Of a stretch of DNA of 64,000 nt, positions 3,764 through 58,047 are shown one piece after another. The DNA comes from Candidatus Yanofskybacteria bacterium RIFCSPHIGHO2_01_FULL_41_21 (GTDB taxonomy: Bacteria; Patescibacteriota; Minisyncoccia; 2-02-FULL-40-12; GWA2-44-9), in NCBI GenBank assembly GCA_001794025.1, contig MGJA01000003.1:12909-76908 (forward strand), read 5' to 3'. Within the stretch, counting starts at the first letter, position 1; every line of letters starts with the position of its first letter. The position numbers were made by a program, and so were the translations under genes. The notes beneath the pieces were generated by a model. It saw nothing but the letters and a program-made list of their open reading frames with translations, did no database searches and was not told the DNA's origin.

Positions 3764-3824
3764 AAATTAGCGATTAGGACTTAGAAAACAGAAACTAAAC
3801 ACTATTAACAGAAATGAGAACTAA

Positions 3825-3917
3825 CCCTTAAGCCCCAGTAGCGGAAGGGGACCCGCGTAGCGGGGGAACCGCCGGGACTGGTTCCCCGGGTCTGGGGCGA
3901 AAGGGTTAGTTCTCAAG
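3825..3917. ncRNA. GC-rich nested-hairpin element between parA and parB; function unknown. Outer 14-bp stem GAGAACTAACCCTT/AAGGGTTAGTTCTC.
   Basis: Perfect 14-bp inverted repeat enclosing CCCCAG/CTGGGG and GGGGAACC/GGTTCCCC helices. Locally ~65% GC in an AT-rich genome. The 3' arm recurs at 11297-11310 just upstream of topA. Confidence 0.4.
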
Positions 3918-3928
3918 ATCAACAAGTT

Positions 3929-4819
3929 ATGTCTATGAATAAAAAATTCTTTGGTCTAGGTAAGGGCTTAGGTTCTTTAATTCCTGAAGGGGCAAAGGCG
4001 ATGTCGCCGACTTCTCAAAAGGAGAATGTTTTTTATGTTGAGGTCTCCAAAATTGATGCCAACCCCGACCAACCCCGCCGGGACTTTGATAATGATGCGC
4101 TTAAAGAATTATCCGGCTCTATTCGTAAATATGGCGTTCTTCAACCTTTGCTGGTTTCCAAAGTAGAGACCTTGTCCGTGAAGGGGATAGATGTTTCATA
4201 TAATTTAATTGCCGGTGAACGTCGTTTGCGGGCGGCCAAGATGGCGGGTTTGCCTCATGTGCCCGTAATTATTCGCGATGATTTTAAACAGGATAAAGAA
4301 CGTCTGGAAGTGGCTTTGATTGAAAACGTTCAACGCGAAGATTTAAATCCGCTTGAAGAAGCCGAAGCGTACATGAAACTTTCCAAGGATTTTGGTCTGA
4401 CTCAAAAAGAAATCGCCGAAAAGGTTGGTAAGTCCCGCGAAGTTGTAGCCAATACGATTCGTTTGATGAATCTTCCCCAAGATATTAAGGACTCACTTCG
4501 GGCCGGAAAAATCGCTCGCGCCAGCGCTCGCGCTTTGCTCGCTTTCAGTGATCCCGCCAAGCAACGTCAGGTCTACGAAAGTATTTTGGCTGGCGGTGTC
4601 TCTTCTCGTGATGTGGAAACGGCGGCTTCGGTTAATAAGCCCGCTACAAAAAAGCCCCGTCTGACTGAAGGCAAGTTTATTGAACTGGAAAAAAATCTCG
4701 CCGACACTCTCGGTACTCATGTCTCCATTCAGGGCGCCGTCGCCTCCGGCGGAAAAATCGTCATCAAATTCGCCGATCTTCAACACCTCAACAAAATCGC
4801 AAAGAGTATTATCGATTAA
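3929..4819 (+). CDS. parB: Chromosome partitioning protein ParB/Spo0J
   Basis: IAGERRLRAAKMAGL ParB box and HTH region LTQKEIAEKVGKSREVVANTIRL. Confidence 0.9.
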   Translation: MSMNKKFFGLGKGLGSLIPEGAKAMSPTSQKENVFYVEVSKIDANPDQPRRDFDNDALKELSGSIRKYGVLQPLLVSKVETLSVKGIDVSYNLIAGERRLRAAKMAGLPHVPVIIRDDFKQDKERLEVALIENVQREDLNPLEEAEAYMKLSKDFGLTQKEIAEKVGKSREVVANTIRLMNLPQDIKDSLRAGKIARASARALLAFSDPAKQRQVYESILAGGVSSRDVETAASVNKPATKKPRLTEGKFIELEKNLADTLGTHVSIQGAVASGGKIVIKFADLQHLNKIAKSIID

Positions 4820-17773: not shown

Positions 17774-17798
17774 AAAAGCTCCCTTGCGGGAGCTTTTG
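17774..17798. terminator. Intrinsic terminator hairpin (rnhA 3' end, abutting the rnpB 3' end)
   Basis: AAAAGCTCCCTTGCGGGAGCTTTT. Confidence 0.6.
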
Positions 17799-17800
17799 GT

Positions 17801-18171
17801 CTTGTAAACAATAAGCCGAGTTCTGTTCCGCTAGTTAGCGGAGGGTAACCATTTATCTGGTCTCGGCATTACTGCCGGACTCAAGCGATCTACTTATAAC
17901 TCACAGCCGAAGCTGTAAGCTTTGATCTTGCACCCCGATAAGTGTTTAGCCGTTTCACTCCCGATCTTTTAACCCTGATCGGAACTAAGCTGTAACCTTT
18001 GATAAATCAATGGTCTGGGTTTAGCTCGCCCTTACTTTCGCTTAGGCCGTCTCTGCTCGCAACTCTCGCGTCACCGCGGACGGGAATTACCCGCTATCGT
18101 TTCCGCCTCATCGGCAGATGGTGCTCGGACTTTCCTCTCCTTAATCCATAAGGACTAAGGAGCGATTACCT
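17801..18171 (-). ncRNA. rnpB: RNase P RNA (bacterial type)
   Basis: On the minus strand, the P4 halves GGAGAGGAAAGTCCGAGC and ACAGAACTCGGCTTAT are present. P1 is CTTGTAAAC pairing with GTTTACAAG at the termini. Length ~370 nt. Confidence 0.8.
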
Positions 18172-18275
18172 AGTTTACAAGATAATACAATTATACTCTT
18201 TTTTGATATCAAAAGCAAACTCAACAGATTGAAAAATAACATAGGACATGATAAAGTTAAATACGTCAAATGAAT

Positions 18276-18348
18276 CCCGTACGAAGTCACGCTCGTCGAG
18301 CTTAGCTCGACGAGTCCGAAGGACCTTGGCGGGGATACTTTGTACGGG
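18276..18348 (+). ncRNA. Palindrome-ended structured element (family CCCGTTAGAAGT) copy 1, abutting the ATG of the sugar-transferase gene
   Basis: Outer stem CCCGTACGAAGT/ACTTTGTACGGG, inner hairpin CGCTCGTCGAGC-TTA-GCTCGACGAG, and conserved GAGTCCGAAGGACCTTGGCGGGG. Shares architecture with covarying bases with 54417-54484. Confidence 0.5.
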
Positions 18349-19743
18349 ATGAAAAAAGCTGATTTATTTTTTAATGTTATTCGTCTCCCTATTGATTTTG
18401 GGATGCTTCTCCTTGCCGGTTTAACCGCCTATCTTTTACGTACTCAAATTTTGGCTAGTTTACGGCCTGTATATTTTGAACTCAATCTACCGCTGATTAA
18501 TTATATGTCGCTGGTGTTATTGGTGGCGCTGGTCTTTATCTGTGCTTATGCCGTATCCGGTTTATATTCAATGAAGGTTCGTATCGGTAAGGCCGAAGAA
18601 TTATTAAAAATTATTGTGGCTTCTTCGGCCGGAGTCATGTTGGTTATTATATTTATCTTTTTACGACAAGCGTTGTTTAATTCCAGATTCTTGGTTTTAG
18701 GTGCTTGGTTTTTAGCAATTATTTTTGTTGCAATCGGTCGGTTGTTAATTAGATATTTTCAACATGTAGCCGTGACTCGCTATAATTTCGGTATTCAGCG
18801 TGTAGTATTAATTGGTAACGACATAGTTGCTCAAGGATTGAAGGATCAACTTACTAAACATCCCGATACGGGTTATCGAATCATTGCCCATTGGGAAACA
18901 CCTCAACTTGAGTCCTTGGCTGAATTTGGGGATACGGTAGACGAGGTCCTATTGATTACACCCAGTTATGCCGATGTAACGGTTATTGATTTAGTTGATT
19001 TCTGTCACGAACATCATATTGTTTTTAAATTTGTTCCTAATTTGTATCAAACCCTGACTAAACATTTGGACGTTGATACAATCGGTGCGGTGCCGGTAAT
19101 TGAACTCAAACGCACCCCGCTTGATGGTTGGGGGAGAGTTTTTAAACGGGTGATTGATATTATCAGTGCCAGTGTGGGGTTAATAATTTTCTCACCCATA
19201 TTTCTTATTGTTGCGATTTTGATTAAGAGCGAAACGTCTGGGCCGGTTTTAATTAGACAGGAAAGGGTAAGTGGTAAGAATAAATTCTTTCTCCTTAAAT
19301 TTAGAAGTATGATCGCCGTGGATCCGGACGGATCGGCTGATTCATTAAAGGAAGGATTATTGGAACTCAATGAACGACAAGCCGGCCCTCTTTTTAAAAT
19401 AAAAAATGATCCAAGAGTAACAAAAATAGGAAGGTTTATCCGGCGGACGAGAATTGATGAATTACCTCAATTTTGGAATGTGTTGAAGGGCGATATTTCT
19501 CTTGTGGGGCCACGACCGCATCTTCCGAATGAAATAAATAAATACGAAAAACATCACAAAAAAGTTCTGGCCATTAAAGCCGGTGCGACGGGTCTGGCCC
19601 AGATTTCCGGCAGTTCTGACCTGGATTTTGATGAGGAAGTGACACTGGACAGCTTTTATATTGAGAACTGGTCTATGAGTATGGATTTAAAAATTATCTT
19701 TTGCACTATCTTTAAGATGTTGCATGACCACTCGGCAGTGTAG
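18349..19743 (+). CDS. Polyprenyl-phosphate sugar phosphotransferase (bacterial sugar transferase, WbaP/EpsL-like)
   Basis: C-terminal catalytic domain KFRSM...GPLFKIKNDPRVTKIGRFIRRTRIDELPQFWNVLKGDISLVGPRP with N-terminal TM helices. Confidence 0.85.
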   Translation: MKKADLFFNVIRLPIDFGMLLLAGLTAYLLRTQILASLRPVYFELNLPLINYMSLVLLVALVFICAYAVSGLYSMKVRIGKAEELLKIIVASSAGVMLVIIFIFLRQALFNSRFLVLGAWFLAIIFVAIGRLLIRYFQHVAVTRYNFGIQRVVLIGNDIVAQGLKDQLTKHPDTGYRIIAHWETPQLESLAEFGDTVDEVLLITPSYADVTVIDLVDFCHEHHIVFKFVPNLYQTLTKHLDVDTIGAVPVIELKRTPLDGWGRVFKRVIDIISASVGLIIFSPIFLIVAILIKSETSGPVLIRQERVSGKNKFFLLKFRSMIAVDPDGSADSLKEGLLELNERQAGPLFKIKNDPRVTKIGRFIRRTRIDELPQFWNVLKGDISLVGPRPHLPNEINKYEKHHKKVLAIKAGATGLAQISGSSDLDFDEEVTLDSFYIENWSMSMDLKIIFCTIFKMLHDHSAV

Positions 19744-30477: not shown

Positions 30478-30589
30478 CATTGAAACTAATCTTAGAATTA
30501 GGTAAACTTAATGGGCCAGGTAGTAGAACCTCTATCTGCAACCTGGCGGTTGCACAGACCAAATTAATAGAGGTTCACATACCTGGTAA

Positions 30590-31327
30590 ATGTTGGAATA
30601 CGAGAACAATAAGGCTCTTTTATATATCTATTCTGGGGCCGGTGGCGTGGATGCTCAGGACTGGGCGTCCATGTTGCTTACAATGTATCGCAAATACTCG
30701 GCCGATAAAGGTTGGGGTTTTGTGATATTGAGTCAGACATTTGGCGAACAGGAAGGTACCAAGAATGCCGTTATAGAAATAACGGGACCGAATTGTTATG
30801 AAATGCTTCGTCGGGAATCCGGTGTTCATCGTCTAGTTCGTATCTCGCCGTATTCTTCAAAGGATTTGCGTCATACTTCGTTCGCGTTGGTGGAATTTAT
30901 GCCCGAGATTATTGCGAAGAATTTTCAAATCAATCCTAACGATTTGCGGATTGATACGTATCGGTCATCAGGGCCTGGCGGGCAGAATGTTAATAAACTG
31001 GAAACGGCAGTCCGGGTTACTCACGTGCCGACGGGCTTAGCAGTCGCGGTTCAGTCCGAACGGTCTCAAGCCCAAAATAAAGAAAAAGCGATGCAGGTAT
31101 TGAATTCACGTCTTGCCGCAAAAATGGAAGCCGAGAAGACACAAGAACTTTCCCAGTTAAAGCCCCAAGTCGCAATTGAGTGGGGCAGTCAAATCAGGTC
31201 CTATGTCTTGAATCCGTATCAGATGGTGAAAGATCATCGGACAGGCGTAAAATCAAGCCAGCCGGACAAAGTACTCAATGGCGATTTAGATAAATTTATA
31301 GAAGCAGAACAATCTCTAGCTTATTAA
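30590..31327 (+). CDS. prfB: Peptide chain release factor 2 homolog lacking N-terminal domain 1 (245 aa)
   Basis: YSGAGGVDAQDWASMLLTMYRKY (RF2-specific), SPY(F)...RHTSF, and GGQ (SSGPGGQNVNK). An in-frame TAA lies immediately upstream of the ATG. No CTT TGA C frameshift site is present. Confidence 0.75.
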   Translation: MLEYENNKALLYIYSGAGGVDAQDWASMLLTMYRKYSADKGWGFVILSQTFGEQEGTKNAVIEITGPNCYEMLRRESGVHRLVRISPYSSKDLRHTSFALVEFMPEIIAKNFQINPNDLRIDTYRSSGPGGQNVNKLETAVRVTHVPTGLAVAVQSERSQAQNKEKAMQVLNSRLAAKMEAEKTQELSQLKPQVAIEWGSQIRSYVLNPYQMVKDHRTGVKSSQPDKVLNGDLDKFIEAEQSLAY

Positions 31328-39066: not shown

Positions 39067-39462
39067 ATGAGTGAACAAATATCAACGCCGGAAAAAGTAT
39101 CTAGAGAGCAAGCTCTCGCTATGTATAGAAAATTTGTAGAGCGTGGAATTACCAGTCCCGATGCTTTAGATTTGAATGATCCCGAAGTTATTGAAGCGAA
39201 TAAACTATTTGAAAAATGGGACGCGCAAGAGAGTGTAAAAGGAGATTTTGAAAGGCATAATTTTGAAAAGACCAAGTTTTATGTTGATGCTGGATTTACC
39301 GACTCTAATTATCTTGGGGATGTTCTAGGATGGCTCTTTCAAGATGCGGGAGATATAGAAAAGCAACCAGATAATCCCACTCGAGTTCAATTGCGAAGCG
39401 ACTACGCAAAAGAGATAAAAAAGATCAGGGACTTATTGGGCTTGGCCACCGGTGGGAATTGA
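39067..39462 (+). CDS. Hypothetical protein (131 aa)
   Basis: ORF preceded by intergenic modules M1/M2. No motif recognised. Confidence 0.45.
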   Translation: MSEQISTPEKVSREQALAMYRKFVERGITSPDALDLNDPEVIEANKLFEKWDAQESVKGDFERHNFEKTKFYVDAGFTDSNYLGDVLGWLFQDAGDIEKQPDNPTRVQLRSDYAKEIKKIRDLLGLATGGN

Positions 39463-39492
39463 GCCGACAGTCGGCTCAATTCCCACCATTTG
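39455..39492. repeat. 38-bp perfect palindrome GGTGGGAATTGAGCCGACAGTCGGCTCAATTCCCACC (copy 1); identical copy at 42567-42603
   Basis: Exact duplicate 3.1 kb away. Followed in both cases by TTTGAGCCGAT... and CCGAGACACGTTGCTA modules. Confidence 0.8.
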
Positions 39493-39577: not shown

Positions 39578-40798
39578 ATGAAAAATATTCCATTTACAGA
39601 AAAACAAATTAGAGATTTTGTAAAAGATCATCCAACGCCATTTTATGTTTATGATGAAGATGGAATTCGCCATTCTGCCCGGAAACTTATCGATAGTTTT
39701 TCGTGGAATTCTAGTTTTAAAGAATTTTTTGCGGTTAAGGCAACTCCAAATCCAAGTATCTTAACTATTCTAAAAGAAGAAGGTTGTGGCGCTGATTGTA
39801 GCTCGTTTCCAGAATTGCTTCTTGCTGAACGTGTAGGAATACGAGGAGAAGATATTATGTTTACCTCAAATGATACGCCAGCTGAAGAATTCAGAAAAGC
39901 TAGTGAACTTGGTGCGATCATTAATCTAGATGATCTTTCCCATCTTGATTATTTGGAAAAAGAAGTTGGCTTACCAGAATTAATCAGTTTTCGCTATAAT
40001 CCCGGATCTTTAACGGGTAATGTTATTATCGGGACACCAAAAGAGGCAAAATTTGGGATTACAAAGGAACAATTACTTGAAGCATACCGGATCGCAAAAG
40101 AAAAAGGAGTGAAACGTTTTGGTCTCCATACGATGATTGCTTCCAATGAGCTTAATCCACAACATTTTATAAATACAGCGGAGATGATTTTCGATATTGC
40201 CTTAGAACTGAAAGAAAAAATTGGAATCAAAGTGGAGTTTATTAACCTGGGTGGTGGGTTTGGAATTCCTTACAAACCTGAGCAAGAAGAGCTTGATCTT
40301 TCCGTTGTGTCGGAGGGAGTCCAGAAACTCTATGAAAAAATGGATATGGCACCAATAAGGTTATTTTTTGAGAGTGGTCGATACATTACTGGTCCGCATG
40401 GTTATCTTATTTCCCGTGTACGCCATATAAAGAACACCTACAAAAAATACATTGGCCTTGATGCTTCAATGGCAGATCTTATGAGACCTGGAATGTACGG
40501 TGCATATCATCACATCACCGTTCTCGGTAAAGAAAAAATGCCATACGATGTAACCTGTGATGTGACAGGTTCATTGTGTGAAAATAATGACAAGTTTGCT
40601 GTCGACCGCAAGTTACCTGAAATAAACACTGGAGACATAGTCATCATTTATGATGTCGGGGCCCATGGCCACTCGATGGGGTTTAATTATAACGGTAAAC
40701 TTAGATCTTCAGAATTTCTACTCGGATCAAATGGTAAAATGAAAATAATACGTAGAGCAGAAACTATAAATGATTATTTTGCAACCTTAAATTTTTAG
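39578..40798 (+). CDS. Fold-type III PLP-dependent decarboxylase (DAP / ornithine / carboxynorspermidine decarboxylase family)
   Basis: TPFYVYDE ... FFAVKATPNPSILTIL ... GGGFGIPY motifs of the Orn/DAP/Arg decarboxylase family. Confidence 0.65.
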   Translation: MKNIPFTEKQIRDFVKDHPTPFYVYDEDGIRHSARKLIDSFSWNSSFKEFFAVKATPNPSILTILKEEGCGADCSSFPELLLAERVGIRGEDIMFTSNDTPAEEFRKASELGAIINLDDLSHLDYLEKEVGLPELISFRYNPGSLTGNVIIGTPKEAKFGITKEQLLEAYRIAKEKGVKRFGLHTMIASNELNPQHFINTAEMIFDIALELKEKIGIKVEFINLGGGFGIPYKPEQEELDLSVVSEGVQKLYEKMDMAPIRLFFESGRYITGPHGYLISRVRHIKNTYKKYIGLDASMADLMRPGMYGAYHHITVLGKEKMPYDVTCDVTGSLCENNDKFAVDRKLPEINTGDIVIIYDVGAHGHSMGFNYNGKLRSSEFLLGSNGKMKIIRRAETINDYFATLNF

Positions 40799-42448: not shown

Positions 42449-42566
42449 TAAATAAAAATAACTTATAAATTCTGCTCGAGGCCTGTCATTTATGATAAGA
42501 TTTGAATAGTTAACCCTTCGATAAAAACTCAGGGTAATAAACACTCTGTAGGGCCTGTCGCTGGTG

Positions 42567-42603
42567 GGAATTGAGCCGACAGTCGGCTCAATTCCCACCA
42601 TTT
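42567..42603. repeat. 38-bp perfect palindrome (copy 2)
   Basis: Identical to 39455-39492. Confidence 0.8.
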
Positions 42604-47562: not shown

Positions 47563-47581
47563 CAGGTAGTAGAGATTCGAC

Positions 47582-47794
47582 TTACCGCAATAGGTAATCC
47601 CGTAACCTCCGTTTAATCAATCTCGAACCTTGATTTGTTTTTAAATACTCTTCTCTGCGCTGTGCATCATTAAATTTTAGACACGCTTCACAATAAATAA
47701 TGTGCCACGGTCTACCAGATTTAGTTGACCTATTGCGGCCTTGATTATGTTCCGATAATCTTCTCTCTAGATTAACAGTGTATCCGATATACAA
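47582..47794 (-). CDS. GIY-YIG nuclease-family small protein (YhbQ-like); likely extends upstream to ~47839 with a non-canonical start
   Basis: Annotated from TTG. The in-frame upstream sequence encodes FHYVYILENKDRELYIGYT (complete GIY-YIG motif) back to a TGA, with no ATG/GTG/TTG; only ATT/ATA are available. Confidence 0.55.
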   Translation of the reverse strand: MYIGYTVNLERRLSEHNQGRNRSTKSGRPWHIIYCEACLKFNDAQRREEYLKTNQGSRLIKRRLRDYLLR

Positions 47795-52853: not shown

Positions 52854-53088
52854 TAAACATTACTAAGATTATATTAACCATTAGTAATGTTTATAAAGAA
52901 GCGTTGTGTTGCCTTGATTCATTAACTTAAGAAGAATATAATCTATTTATACATGAGAAAAACACTTATCTTTTTAGTCGTTGTAGTCATAGTCATTGTG
53001 ACTGTGGTTTTGGTTATGACTAGGTATGCTACGGCGCCAGGGAATACACCCGTTTTAACGTCACCATCAGTCCAACAATAACAATAAT

Positions 53089-53193
53089 CCCGTTAGAAAT
53101 TAACCCTATGGGAATACCACATAAATCTTTAATCAAACTACTTGCCAGTTCCACAGTGCAAAGTGGTGGATGGTTTGTAGAATTTCTAACGGG
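53089..53193 (+). repeat. Palindrome-ended element copy 2 (CCCGTTAGAAATT...AATTTCTAACGGG), abutting the ATG at 53194
   Basis: 13-bp terminal inverted repeats. Interior differs from copies 1 and 3. Confidence 0.6.
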
Positions 53194-53778
53194 ATGAAAT
53201 TATCCATGCCCCACATTCCTAAACTTTTTATTCCGCTCGCTTTTGTTATGGCCATGTCTATGGGATTGGTTTATGTTGTTGTCCAGCAAAATTTTAGAGC
53301 GAATGCGAATGACCCCCAGATTCAATTGGTTGAAGATTTAGTGGAACAACTATCAGCCGGTCGAACCGTGGAGTCCATTAATACAAGCGCTGGGGTTGAT
53401 ATGGCCCAGAGCTTGTCCCTCTTTCTTTTTATTTATGATGAGACCGGTAAAATGGTTGTCGGTACAGGTAAGCTTGATGGTCAGTATCCAACCTTACCGG
53501 ATGGTGTTTTGGAACGTGCCAAAGAGGTCGGTGAGAACAGAATTACCTGGGAACCTCAATCCGGTTTACGATTTGCGTTGGTTATTATTCCGTTTAGTGG
53601 GGATCAATCAGGATTCGTTGCTATTGGACGTTCCCTTCGAGAAGTTGAACAACGGATAGACATGCTTGGTCTCCAAGTGTTGGTTGTCTGGCTTATCGGT
53701 CTTCTCGGGTTATTTATTCTGATGGTTGGTGGAAAAATTATTTTTTCCAGATACTTTTCCAGTAAACAAATCGTATAA
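53170..53778 (+). CDS. Hypothetical membrane/secreted protein
   Basis: N-terminal TM and C-terminal TM. Alternative start ATG 53194 immediately after the element 3' arm, as for the other copies. Confidence 0.5.
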   Translation: MVCRISNGMKLSMPHIPKLFIPLAFVMAMSMGLVYVVVQQNFRANANDPQIQLVEDLVEQLSAGRTVESINTSAGVDMAQSLSLFLFIYDETGKMVVGTGKLDGQYPTLPDGVLERAKEVGENRITWEPQSGLRFALVIIPFSGDQSGFVAIGRSLREVEQRIDMLGLQVLVVWLIGLLGLFILMVGGKIIFSRYFSSKQIV

Positions 53779-53933
53779 TTCTCCCCATGATCAGGTAGTG
53801 AAAATCCGACAGGGTTACATCTAGCGCCTGTCGTATAATTTACTATTCTGGTAATGTTTGACCTATTTAAATTAATTCGTACTCTGCGTATTCAGGTGCA
53901 ACCTGAGGCGCATGTCGGATTTCTACTACCTGG

Positions 53934-54368
53934 ATGATTACCATTGATGATTTTAAAAAGATAGAACTTAAAGTTGGTCGTGTTTTAAACGCTGAACCAA
54001 TTGAAGGTTCGGAAAAATTGTTAAAGTTGCAAGTTGATTTAGGAGAGCCAAACCTGCCTGCCGGCAGGCAGGTTTTAGCGGGCATTGCTAAACATTATCA
54101 ACCGAGTGAACTTGTCGGTCGCCAAATTGTGATTATCGCTAATCTTGAACCTCGGATTTTCAATATTAATATAAAGAATGATGGTCCCGTTAGAAGTAAG
54201 ACGCCAGAGGCGTCTGCCGACCATGCCTCCGATGCAGGTCGGACTTCTAACGGGATGGAATCTAACGGTATGGTTTTGGCAGCATCGGGTCCGGCAACTG
54301 CCGGAGGTGAGCTCGTTTCCATACTTATGCCCGACAAAGAGTTACCTCCCGGATCAAGTGTTCGATAG
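53934..54368 (+). CDS. CsaA/Trbp111-like tRNA-binding domain protein, interrupted in frame by two palindromic insertions
   Basis: IDDFKKIELKVGRVLNAEPIEGSEKLLKLQVDLGE...VIIANLEPR...MESNGMVLAAS tRNA-binding fold. 26-bp palindrome at 54050-54075. Element copy at 54186-54254 adds PVRSKTPEASADHASDAGRTSNG. Confidence 0.65.
   Translation: MITIDDFKKIELKVGRVLNAEPIEGSEKLLKLQVDLGEPNLPAGRQVLAGIAKHYQPSELVGRQIVIIANLEPRIFNINIKNDGPVRSKTPEASADHASDAGRTSNGMESNGMVLAASGPATAGGELVSILMPDKELPPGSSVR
54186..54254 (+). repeat. Palindrome-ended element copy 4 (CCCGTTAGAAGT...ACTTCTAACGGG) inserted in frame inside a CDS
   Basis: 12-bp perfect TIRs. 69 nt = 23 codons; the reading frame is maintained. Confidence 0.7.
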
Positions 54369-54416
54369 TGGTTGTTTTTATTTAAATTTGTTATATTAGG
54401 ACTAAGATTTACGTAT

Positions 54417-54484
54417 CCCGTTAGAAGTCCCGCTCGCGACCTAGTCGCGAGTCCGGAGGACCTTGGCGGGGCTACTTCTAACGG
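54417..54484 (+). ncRNA. Palindrome-ended structured element copy 3, abutting the ATG at 54486
   Basis: CCCGTTAGAAGT/ACTTCTAACGG outer stem, CGCTCGCGAC-CTA-GTCGCGAG hairpin, and GAGTCCGGAGGACCTTGGCGGGG. Covaries with copy 1. Confidence 0.5.
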
Positions 54485-54485
54485 T

Positions 54486-55433
54486 ATGGATACTAATTCA
54501 CAAATAAGTCGTTCTACGCCAAGAGATGTGTTTCTATATTTGTTGGGTTTGATTACACTTGTGATGAGTGCCGGCAGTTTTGGAATGCTTATTTATCAGT
54601 ATATTGATATTATATTTCCCGATGTTCTGCAGTACAACTATAGCACTCCAAGCGCAAACTATAGTTTAATTAGAACTGCGTTGGCAGTTCTCGTGGTTGT
54701 CTTCCCTGTATTTTTCTGGGTCAGTAGAACTTTACACAAAGATGTTGTATCCGAACCATCCAAACGTGATCTTCGTGTTCGTCGCTGGTTATTATCTTTT
54801 ACAATTTTAGTCGCCGGTCTAGTTATCATAGGTGATTTAATCACTTTGATCCAAAACTACTTGAATGGTGATTTAACCACAGCATTTATTTTGAAAGTTA
54901 TCACAGTGTTCTTTATCGCCGGTTCAACATTATTCTATTACCTCTCGGAATTACGTGATAGAACCTACCCTCGCAAGGCCTTTCAAATAGTTATTGTTGG
55001 TGTCGTTGTTTTATCCCTTGGCTACGGATTTTATCTTGCGGGTTCTCCAAAAAGTCAGCGTCTGGTTAGATTTGACGAGCAAAAAGTAAACGATCTCCAA
55101 ATGATCCAGAGTTACTTGGTTTCTAATTGGTGGCAAGTAAAGGGGTCACTTCCCAAAACACTTGACCTATTGAATGATCCAATATCCGGTTTCAGTGTCC
55201 CTGTTGATCCACAAAGCCAAGAATCATACGAATATATTTTGATTGGCGCTCGTGAATTTAAATTATGTGCAACGTTTAATCTTGATACGGTTAATCCCAA
55301 AGAGTCCGTTCCGGCGATATATCCGTACTATAATTGGCAACATGGCGCCGGCCGAGTTTGTTTTGATAGAACCATTGACCCGACGTTATATCCGGTAAAC
55401 CCAAAAGGTGAGCCAGTTCCGTTAAAATATTAA
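54486..55433 (+). CDS. Hypothetical membrane protein (4-5 TM)
   Basis: ATG right after the element. The track ORF start at 54372 is a TTG-initiated upstream extension that would include the element. Confidence 0.55.
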   Translation: MDTNSQISRSTPRDVFLYLLGLITLVMSAGSFGMLIYQYIDIIFPDVLQYNYSTPSANYSLIRTALAVLVVVFPVFFWVSRTLHKDVVSEPSKRDLRVRRWLLSFTILVAGLVIIGDLITLIQNYLNGDLTTAFILKVITVFFIAGSTLFYYLSELRDRTYPRKAFQIVIVGVVVLSLGYGFYLAGSPKSQRLVRFDEQKVNDLQMIQSYLVSNWWQVKGSLPKTLDLLNDPISGFSVPVDPQSQESYEYILIGAREFKLCATFNLDTVNPKESVPAIYPYYNWQHGAGRVCFDRTIDPTLYPVNPKGEPVPLKY

Positions 55434-57060: not shown

Positions 57061-58047
57061 ATGAACGATTTTCGGAACAGGTTGATATTTGTGGGGTCTT
57101 TGGGGGTAGTTTTTATTTTTACTCTTATCTTTAGTTATGGCCCAGGATATGGCGGTCGCCTCTCGGCATTTTTAGGTAATAATGTCACCAATTCTCCAAA
57201 AATGTCACCTAGTGACATGGTGACACCGATGGTGACACAAAAAAAGATGGTGACATTACAAAATGTCACCAATGTCACCACCGTGTCACCAACTCTGTCA
57301 CCATCCCTTTATAATGACAGCCAGTATTACTCTGTGTCACCATCGGTGACACCATTGTCATCTGATGTCACCACCGTGTCACCAACTTTGTCACCACAGA
57401 CAAGTGTGTCACCATCTCTTTCTACTACTCCACGTTCGACAACATCAACACCTCAACCATCGGAAACACCGAGTCCGACTCCATCGCCTACCCAAACACC
57501 GACACCAACTTCTGTGACAATTGATGTCGGTTCAGTGGTTATTAATGAAATTGCCTGGATGGGGACAGGAGGGACAGCAAAATTATCAAATGATGAATGG
57601 ATAGAGCTTTATAATACGACTAGCCGAACAATTGATTTGACCGGCTGGATTCTGAAATCACTTACTGGTACTTCTCCAGATCCTCAAATTGCTTTATCTA
57701 ATTCAATTCAACCTTTCGGGTTCTACCTTCTTGAAAGAACTGATGATACAACTGTGTCTAATATTTTAGCCGGCCAGGTTTATACTGGTTCGCTGTTGGA
57801 TACCGGCGAAAATTTAGAACTTGTAGCTCCATCAGGTTTATTGATTGATGCGGTTCGTAGTGAAGGGTTATGGTATGCAGGCAATAAAGAAGGCAGATTT
57901 TCAATGGAACGCATAGATTCTAGTAAATTTGGGGATATTAGTAATAATTGGGGTACGAACAACGGCTTAATAGTAAATGGTTTAAATAGTGATGATGGCC
58001 CGATTAACGGCACACCGGGTGCGCCCAATAGTGTTACTACTCCATAA
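57061..58047 (+). CDS. Membrane-anchored lamin-tail-domain (LTD) protein with S/T/P-rich linker
   Basis: VVINEIAWMGT...NDEWIELYNTTSRTIDLTGWIL LTD signature; N-terminal TM. The linker DNA is full of GTGACA/TGTCAC repeats. Confidence 0.6.
   Translation: MNDFRNRLIFVGSLGVVFIFTLIFSYGPGYGGRLSAFLGNNVTNSPKMSPSDMVTPMVTQKKMVTLQNVTNVTTVSPTLSPSLYNDSQYYSVSPSVTPLSSDVTTVSPTLSPQTSVSPSLSTTPRSTTSTPQPSETPSPTPSPTQTPTPTSVTIDVGSVVINEIAWMGTGGTAKLSNDEWIELYNTTSRTIDLTGWILKSLTGTSPDPQIALSNSIQPFGFYLLERTDDTTVSNILAGQVYTGSLLDTGENLELVAPSGLLIDAVRSEGLWYAGNKEGRFSMERIDSSKFGDISNNWGTNNGLIVNGLNSDDGPINGTPGAPNSVTTP

Follow-up and report, generated by a model that had tools for sequence, protein, structure and literature searches.

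A family of short inverted-repeat elements at start codons and within genes of Patescibacteria and other bacteria

Four short sequences with matching palindromic ends occur in a 64-kb stretch of DNA from Candidatus Yanofskybacteria, a groundwater-derived genome from the Candidate Phyla Radiation (CPR; Patescibacteria). Three of them stand immediately before start codons and the fourth lies inside a gene for a tRNA-binding protein. What are these sequences, and why do they lie at these places? We analyzed the whole stretch of 64,000 nucleotides, called the window here, together with public genomes and with public contigs, at least 20 of the latter containing the same locus. [quoted passage not shown] Literature searches by arm sequence and by topic returned no account of this family.

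Arms, target duplications and distribution of the family

The four copies had been named in a sequence-only reading of this DNA, and all were found at their places. Copy 1 extends from 18275 to 18349 (core 18276-18348), with a terminal T at 18275, a terminal A at 18349 that is also the A of a sugar-transferase start codon, and a type A interior, which forms a three-way junction. Its variant arms, CCCGTACGAAGT and ACTTTGTACGGG, carry two compensatory pair changes and one G:T pair relative to the canonical arms. Copy 2 (53088-53194, core 53089-53193, 105 nt; arms CCCGTTAGAAATT and AATTTCTAACGGG) has an AT-rich interior and lies between a 42-codon open reading frame (ORF) and the ATG at 53194 of a membrane-protein gene. 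Copy 3 (54185-54255 on the plus strand, core 54186-54254, 69 nt; arms CCCGTTAGAAGT and ACTTCTAACGGG) is the one within the tRNA-binding-protein gene, and its interior is of type B, with two hairpins. Copy 4 (54416-54486, core 54417-54485; 3' arm ACTTCTAACGGT) has a type A interior and stands directly 5' of the ATG at 54486 of a gene for a DUF5671 membrane protein; its start had been placed correctly, whereas its end is at 54485 and not at 54484. Long ORFs open directly 3' of copies 1, 2 and 4, at 18349, 53194 and 54486, as claimed for the three copies said to abut an ATG. The interiors had been described as varying. This is true overall, but copies 1 and 4 have one interior type in common and share an interior stretch of 21 nt where zero such stretches are expected.

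Three of the window copies share the arms CCCGTTAGAA(A/G)T and A(A/C)TTCTAACGG(G/T), copy 1 being the exception, and in each copy a long perfect stem closes the variable interior. All four are much more stable on folding than shuffled sequences (z = -3.8 to -6.2). The 12-mer arm alone is not significantly enriched in the window (8 matches with at most two mismatches vs 4.4 expected), while TTCTAACGGKATG matches nine times vs 2.7 expected, a count reached by none of 100 shuffles. The whole window gave no match to the elements in Rfam 15 at gathering thresholds, and a permissive search of 53000-54550 gave only chance-level matches (E above 4). The window also encodes a bacterial RNase P RNA and four tRNAs; the RNase P RNA is of class A (17797-18181, minus strand, 134 bits) and lies 95 nt upstream of copy 1.

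To follow the family into other genomes, we scanned for the pattern CCCGTTAGAA-N35-65-TTCTAACGG with one genome per species; the family counts given below (115-118 copies) are those of the matches listed. At least 118 loci in other genomes have the same arms, in agreement with the expectation that a genome search would reveal further copies. Among the 80 loci listed by title, 39 are from Patescibacteria and 25 from Planctomycetota, and the remainder are from Desulfobacterota-type bacteria, Nitrospirota, WOR-3, KSB1, one gammaproteobacterium and unclassified bacteria. Only seven viral contigs contain the pattern. By our own arithmetic, about 67 chance matches of the 19-base collection pattern are expected in 596 Gb. 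However, the 118 listed loci are not chance matches, because they agree at bases that the pattern did not specify. The CGG is followed by a further G in 115 of the 117 listed copies. Of the 118 listed copies, 106 are paired at arm position 11 and 99 at position 12, and in 107 the bases that border CCCG and CGGG on the outside complement each other. Position 13 pairs in only 32 of the 118, about the chance level. Arm pairing thus ends at position 12 on the inner side and runs 1-2 bp beyond CCCG/CGGG on the outer side. The terminal inverted repeats are 13 bp long (YCCCGTTAGAAR ... YTTCTAACGGGR), and at their outer edge a C or T on the left is matched by the complementary base on the right.

Between the arms the elements differ widely. 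The interiors range from AT-rich to GC-rich, are mostly unrelated or modular, and can be almost nil. The elements measure about 30-105 nt and have no coding capacity, as is the case for MITEs. One such minimal form, a copy of about 30 nt in locus L040 with little beyond the two arms, is read as PVRNSSISNG in a gene read as IF-2. Nested copies are common. The 64-kb window has four copies, and one 8-kb locus elsewhere (L032) has up to three paired elements.

The flanking sequences carry the signature of insertion. When the hexamers before CCCG and after CGGG are compared position by position, they agree in fractions of.54,.80,.70,.74,.77 and.41. The two central target bases are identical in 76 of the 115 listed copies (chance, 1/16), and they are inverted only in two. 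The target duplication is 4 bp long, mostly TNNA with a minority of CNNG, in the usual context R|TNNA|Y; the commonest duplications are TAAA/TTTA (22), TGAA/TTCA (16) and TCAA/TTGA (11). The boundary of the element follows from flanks such as ATGAAC|...|GTGAAC, in which the element ends in C...G (Y to R) and the duplication is TGAA. For copy 1 this same duplication, TGAA, is found upstream at 18271-18274, within the original start ATGAA, and downstream at 18350-18353.

Empty orthologous sites are present in five relatives, which establishes presence/absence polymorphism. The sugar-transferase site is empty in L146 and L147, where it reads ...TATTGTGAAAAAAGCC, and filled in the window and in L144, where it reads AATGAAT[element]ATGAAAAAAGC. 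The syntenic relative L129 has copy 4 and is without copies 2 and 3. Copy 4 is in turn missing from the more distant relatives L134 and L135, and in L131 it is flanked by the perfect repeat ATGGAT|...|ATGGAT.

We consider it probable that the elements are non-autonomous MITE-type DNA transposons of one family. Each consists of 13-bp inverted repeats with an optional modular interior, and its insertion duplicates a 4-bp target. The inverted repeats and the target duplication suggest that a DDE-type transposase acting in trans moves them. In compact genomes, copies would persist only where they do little harm, that is, just after a start codon, between genes, or in frame within genes.

Copies at start codons and within genes

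The abutment of start codons can be understood from the target. When an element enters a site that reads A|TGAA or A|TGGA, behind the fifth base of ATGAA or ATGGA, the original start remains upstream; the element's own terminal A or G, joined to the duplicated TGAA, then makes a second ATG or GTG directly behind the 3' arm. Copies thus abut start codons because TGAA and TGGA are favoured targets and the element ends in A or G. In one orientation, an ATG follows 28 of the 116 listed copies, and 25 of these 28 open ORFs of at least 60 codons. We call a copy start-adjacent (n = 28) when an ATG or GTG at the head of an ORF of 100 codons or more stands right behind it. The signals of the original start are found in front of the upstream duplicate. 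In ten of these 28 copies, a -10-like box precedes that duplicate by 5-9 nt; the corresponding frequencies at the same loci are 20% for all gene starts and 8% for random positions. Other start-adjacent copies have a Shine-Dalgarno-like run there.

The position of these boxes suggests that the post-start sites are often in genes with leaderless mRNAs. In the window, -10-like hexamers peak 5-8 nt before the ATG (16 of 69 starts vs 3.8 expected), and a Shine-Dalgarno-like run precedes just 10 of the 48 long ORFs. From this peak and the scarce Shine-Dalgarno runs, we infer that many genes of this organism have leaderless mRNAs.

The upstream duplicate is prone to decay. In the window it has become ACG at 54411, in front of copy 4, and the comparison with L129 allows a reconstruction in which that of copy 2 may have been lost by a 6-nt deletion. 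The duplicate at 18270 is intact, but a stop codon lies inside the element. In L144 and L131 the upstream ATG reads in frame through the element and gives N-terminal extensions, for instance MNPVRSHARAKDASPKDLGGATSYGMKK. Public gene calls likewise run into or through elements: DUF5671 is called as 353 aa from the TTG at 54372 (54372-55433), the membrane protein behind copy 2 as 202 aa from 53170 (53170-53778), and the sugar transferases as 476-489 aa (P0130; P0133, 489 aa). The N-termini of these extended calls are probably wrong, or at least uncertain. For annotation, a hairpin ending in ...TTCTAACGGG and followed by an ATG should be read as marking a duplicated start codon.

An unrelated inverted-repeat family, with arms CAGGTAGT..., also sits at gene starts. 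One copy (53792-53932, 141 nt; arms CAGGTAGTGAAAATCCGACA and TGTCGGATTTCTACTACCTG) lies at the start of the tRNA-binding-protein gene, between TATAAT-N7-ATGAT and GATGAT. It is present in L129 and absent from L131, in which TATAAT-N6-ATG is intact, and from L133. Another copy (30516-30586) ends 3 nt before the ATG at 30590, and a decayed one (about 47573-47668, minus strand) has a 3' arm, CTACTACCTG, that abuts an ATG, with ATGCACA on both flanks. Position at a start codon is therefore not a property of one element family. We attribute it to the survival of insertions at such places when the genome is compact, possibly together with a promoter-proximal preference.

The window contains further repeats near gene starts and elsewhere. 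A 24-bp inverted repeat (TGAGAACTAACCCTTAAGCCCCAG...) with a GC-rich interior occupies 3815-3915, ends 13 nt before the ATG at 3929, and may be another structured insertion. Dense direct and inverted copies of the motifs GGTGACAC and GTGTCACC fill 57212-57396, a cluster that could be a binding-site array or a set of iterons. One perfect palindrome of 18-19 bp, (T)GGTGGGAATTGAGCCGAC / GTCGGCTCAATTCCCACC(A), is present both at 39451-39487 and at 42562-42600, some 3.1 kb from each other, and the ORFs starting at 39578 and 42647 have the upstream motif GAGACACGTTGCTA in common.

Copy 3 is an element within a gene. Its host (53934-54368, plus strand) encodes a Trbp111/CsaA-like protein of 144 aa with the Pfam domain tRNA_bind, whereas its homologues typically have 106-110 aa. 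The 144-aa protein is identical to an NCBI entry from Candidatus Yanofskybacteria bacterium RIFCSPHIGHO2_01. The copy had been described as an in-frame insertion of 69 nt, or 23 codons (PVRSKTPEASADHASDAGRTSNG). The insertion and its size hold, but the total excess over the orthologues is 29-31 residues rather than 23. In alignments of 24 and of 112 homologues, IFNINIKNDGPVRSKTPEASADHASDAGRTSN replaces two or three residues between NLEPR and GMES, at a point that corresponds to the junction of F78 and G79 in Aquifex Trbp111. A loop position had been anticipated for the insert. In agreement with this, a structure model places it between two beta-strands and leaves the region unstructured (confidence <50 for residues 82-105). 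Pfam searches with the inserted peptides gave no match. More than 100 homologues, the closest (P0004) included, are without the inserted residues, and only two close relatives (P0002 and P0003) carry them. Their presence in these two dates the insertion and does not refute it. From sequence comparison, this loop seems to have received insertions repeatedly.

In the DNA, the gene without the insertion reads TCAATGATGGGCATGGAATCTAATGGTATGG and the interrupted one ...AAGAATGATGGT[69 nt]ATGGAATCTAACGGTATGG. Just upstream of copy 3 lies an extra AT-rich stretch of 13-19 nt (ATTTTCAATATTAATATAAAG, 54156-54176, plus strand) that the uninterrupted orthologue does not have. On the upstream side, the flank is read in another frame than in the uninterrupted gene, which indicates that the AT-rich bases restore the frame; together with the 68-nt net gain from the element, they keep it open. 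Close inspection did not uphold the proposed second partial 3' arm (TCTAACGGTATGG, 54260-54272, plus strand). These bases are native codons for the SNGM of the conserved ESNGM motif and do not belong to the element, with TCTAATGGTATGG as the counterpart in a relative without the insertion. The same loop is extended in other lineages. In L135 (1501-1902, P0022), a different GC-rich palindrome is read as SIRQAQGRPEELEGRLSSGQ. The element-free P0109 (L136, 1501-1887) has an AT-rich extension similar to that of the window, of the KIKIKNGD type.

Many other copies lie within genes. Read-through, with at least 40 open codons on each side, is found for 24 of the 116 listed copies, and 23 of these 24 have a length divisible by three, as compared with 60 of the 116 overall. 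When at least 80 open codons were required on each side, all 16 copies were divisible by three and stop-free. No listed copy interrupts an ORF that its removal would restore. The open, divisible-by-three copies argue for translation rather than removal. Pfam-confirmed hosts include SecA, DNA polymerase III alpha (DnaE), GatB, the MraW/RsmH methylase, leucyl aminopeptidase (PepA) and a class II aminoacyl-tRNA synthetase. With one or two exceptions, the listed intragenic cases use the frame CCC GTT AGA ... AAC GGG (PVR...SNG). We judge this bias to be largely explained: one of the two alternative frames meets TAG in the arm, and the other is disfavoured because the commonest duplications become TGA, TAA or TAG. 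An intragenic copy would persist if its length is a multiple of three and it has no stop, and its translation would add a loop, PVR...SNG, to the surface of the protein. This explains why conserved proteins carry inserted PVR...SNG loops in particular lineages. The copies, their orthologues and their locations support the earlier comparison with RPEs, according to which the elements colonise both intergenic DNA and ORFs while keeping the frame.

Conservation of resident copies and rival explanations

Resident copies differ in how they evolve. Copy 3 is 94% and 97% identical to its orthologues, and the rest of the gene 79% and 66% (Fisher p = 0.002 and 1e-8). Copy 4 is 99% and 97% identical to that of the relatives L129 and L131, and its flanks 86% and 77% (p = 0.003 and 8e-5). 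In contrast, copy 1 evolves like its flanks (55/69 vs 89/112 positions identical). A 21-nt hairpin of copy 3 is identical in a Phycisphaerae genome, and the three-way junction of type A is maintained, 7 of its 23 pairs having changed in a compensatory manner among 12 copies. Selection on the sense-strand RNA is not apparent, as 48 oriented copies showed no asymmetry in folding energy or in G:U pairs. A metagenome scan for near-identical forms of copy 3 found matches solely at the orthologous locus; this result is weak because the scan was incomplete, and it missed contig Ga0209542_10001480 (L004), which contains the searched 33-mer exactly.

Several observations weigh against a family of MITE-type transposons. 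The strong conservation of copies 3 and 4 relative to their flanks is not predicted by the neutral decay of a dead transposon. In addition, all four substitutions in the L131 form of copy 3 change an amino acid, and one of them makes a G:T pair in the stem, which points to constraint on the nucleic acid and not on the peptide. About one third of the listed copies are without an intact duplication, and copy 3, which has no recognisable one, is among them. Copies within a genome share arms and not interiors, whereas typical, recently amplified MITE families are near-identical throughout, and it is unusual for the ends of a transposon to have the same 13-bp arms in several phyla. Finally, neither an autonomous element nor a transposase was found in scans of public collections that reached arm pairs up to 600 nt apart. 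Distant arm pairs, none of which encloses a transposase, were chance matches within NusA and pyrophosphatase genes. All-against-all clustering of 1019 ORFs near copies yielded only housekeeping families, with no family recurring beside copies, and the annotated parts of the window contain no transposase.

Individual old copies appear to have come under selection on nucleic-acid structure. Their conservation may stem from a function, from repeated replacement or from another cause. One proposal, which we regard as unlikely, is that nucleotide-level selection keeps the hairpins because a conserved host factor recognises the 12-14-bp stem, with starts re-routed to the rebuilt ATG. If this were true, insertion would turn a leaderless gene into one with a hairpin-led mRNA, and the family would serve, across phyla, as a mobile module that rewires translation initiation or mRNA stability. 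The excess conservation of some copies and their position at leaderless gene starts together give a lead on how a 5' hairpin is tolerated or used.

One can go further and regard the elements as primarily structured RNA signals, with a fixed 12-14-bp stem bound by a conserved host protein or RNase and mobility only secondary. At the 5' end of an mRNA or within it, such a stem would govern stability, processing or the initiation of translation. The strong folding of all four window copies and the compensatory changes of type A agree with this, as do the slow evolution of copies 3 and 4, whose few changes are non-synonymous or G:U-compatible, and the location of many copies directly after promoters of apparently leaderless genes. 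A perfect inverted repeat would also form the same stem whichever strand is transcribed. However, target duplications, empty sites and nested copies indicate insertion and not evolution in place. Type A is found in either orientation with respect to the host gene, the 48 oriented copies show no excess of sense-strand folding or G:U use, copy 1 is no slower than its flanks, and Rfam has no matching family. We therefore hold a primary RNA role to be quite unlikely. Removal or skipping at expression, by RNA excision or by ribosomal bypass between the flanking repeats, has the right geometry, with a stable hairpin between identical 4-6-nt repeats, and would account for genes that seem intact although the start-adjacent copies, for the most part, are not in frame or include stops. 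Start-adjacent copies need no bypass, as an ATG or GTG follows the element. That all 16 securely intragenic copies are stop-free multiples of three, with only 60 of 116 divisible by three overall, and that no interrupted ORF is restored by taking a copy out, makes removal very improbable.

Small palindromic non-coding repeats whose minimal forms approach a plain hairpin, like the one of about 30 nt in L040, also recall repetitive extragenic palindromic (REP) sequences and REPINs, which are moved by REP-associated tyrosine transposases (RAYTs; Y1 HUH), and palindromes derived from IS200/IS605. Such elements insert without target duplication and are extragenic, whereas here there is a 4-bp duplication and 24 of 116 copies (about 20%) lie in ORFs. 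The arms begin with CCCG and not with the GTAG or CGTC tag described for REP sequences (PMC3733652), and no RAYT-like neighbour recurs; an origin of this kind is equally improbable. The chance matches expected for the search pattern (see above) are the one argument for coincidence or for an assembly or adapter artefact. In the matches, however, the palindrome runs on past the bases searched for and the flanks contain duplications, and the matches come from few phyla only; independent assemblies made in different studies also agree in having conserved copies at orthologous sites, which leaves this explanation a negligible probability. We also considered attC, dif and parS sites and uptake sequences; these were set aside, as the order of the GTT...AAC cores, the variable spacing and the insertion polymorphism do not fit them.

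Comparison with known systems

Among known systems, several share single features with the MITE-type family proposed here. Bypass elements, such as those of T4 gene 60 and the 'byp' elements of Magnusiomyces mitochondria, are hairpin mobile inserts with matching short flanking repeats, and they interrupt the frame and carry stops. In contrast, every securely intragenic copy described here keeps the frame open. The 4-bp T..A duplication, TTAA in piggyBac, and inverted repeats beginning with CC(C) recall piggyBac and IS1380, and IS1380 itself makes a 4-bp duplication. Unlike in piggyBac, the two central target bases are free here, and to our knowledge the arms match no IS1380 or piggyBac end. 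IS1380 is treated as a prokaryotic relative of piggyBac. By analogy, kinship with this group may be taken as a lead only.

The elements resemble the Correia/NEMIS, ERIC and RUP MITEs in their inverted repeats, short duplication, small size, lack of coding capacity, hairpins, insertion polymorphism and occasional fusion with ORFs. Classical MITEs, however, are lineage-restricted, with conserved interiors and a known or suspected parent insertion sequence, whereas the present family has identical arms across phyla and unrelated or modular interiors, and no parent insertion sequence was found among the arm pairs, neighbouring ORFs and window annotation searched. A 2024 review of prokaryotic MITEs names neither Patescibacteria nor Planctomycetes.

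The closest parallel in behaviour is with the RPEs, short palindromes that occur between genes and in frame in housekeeping genes, where they add peptides compatible with the fold (PMC10969869). The in-frame copies in CsaA, SecA, DnaE, GatB, RsmH and PepA follow the same pattern. Compared by description only, the two differ in several respects: the present elements occupy Patescibacteria, Planctomycetota and others, measure about 30-105 nt rather than about 150 bp, have conserved 13-bp arms and no family-specific peptide, and stand out by a clear target duplication of 4 bp and by being strongly associated with start codons. The RPE-type phenomenon, so far described mainly for Rickettsia, in which mobile palindromes enter the coding sequence of essential proteins, is thus extended beyond Rickettsia to Patescibacteria and Planctomycetota, with hosts that include very small genomes usually held to be nearly free of mobile DNA.

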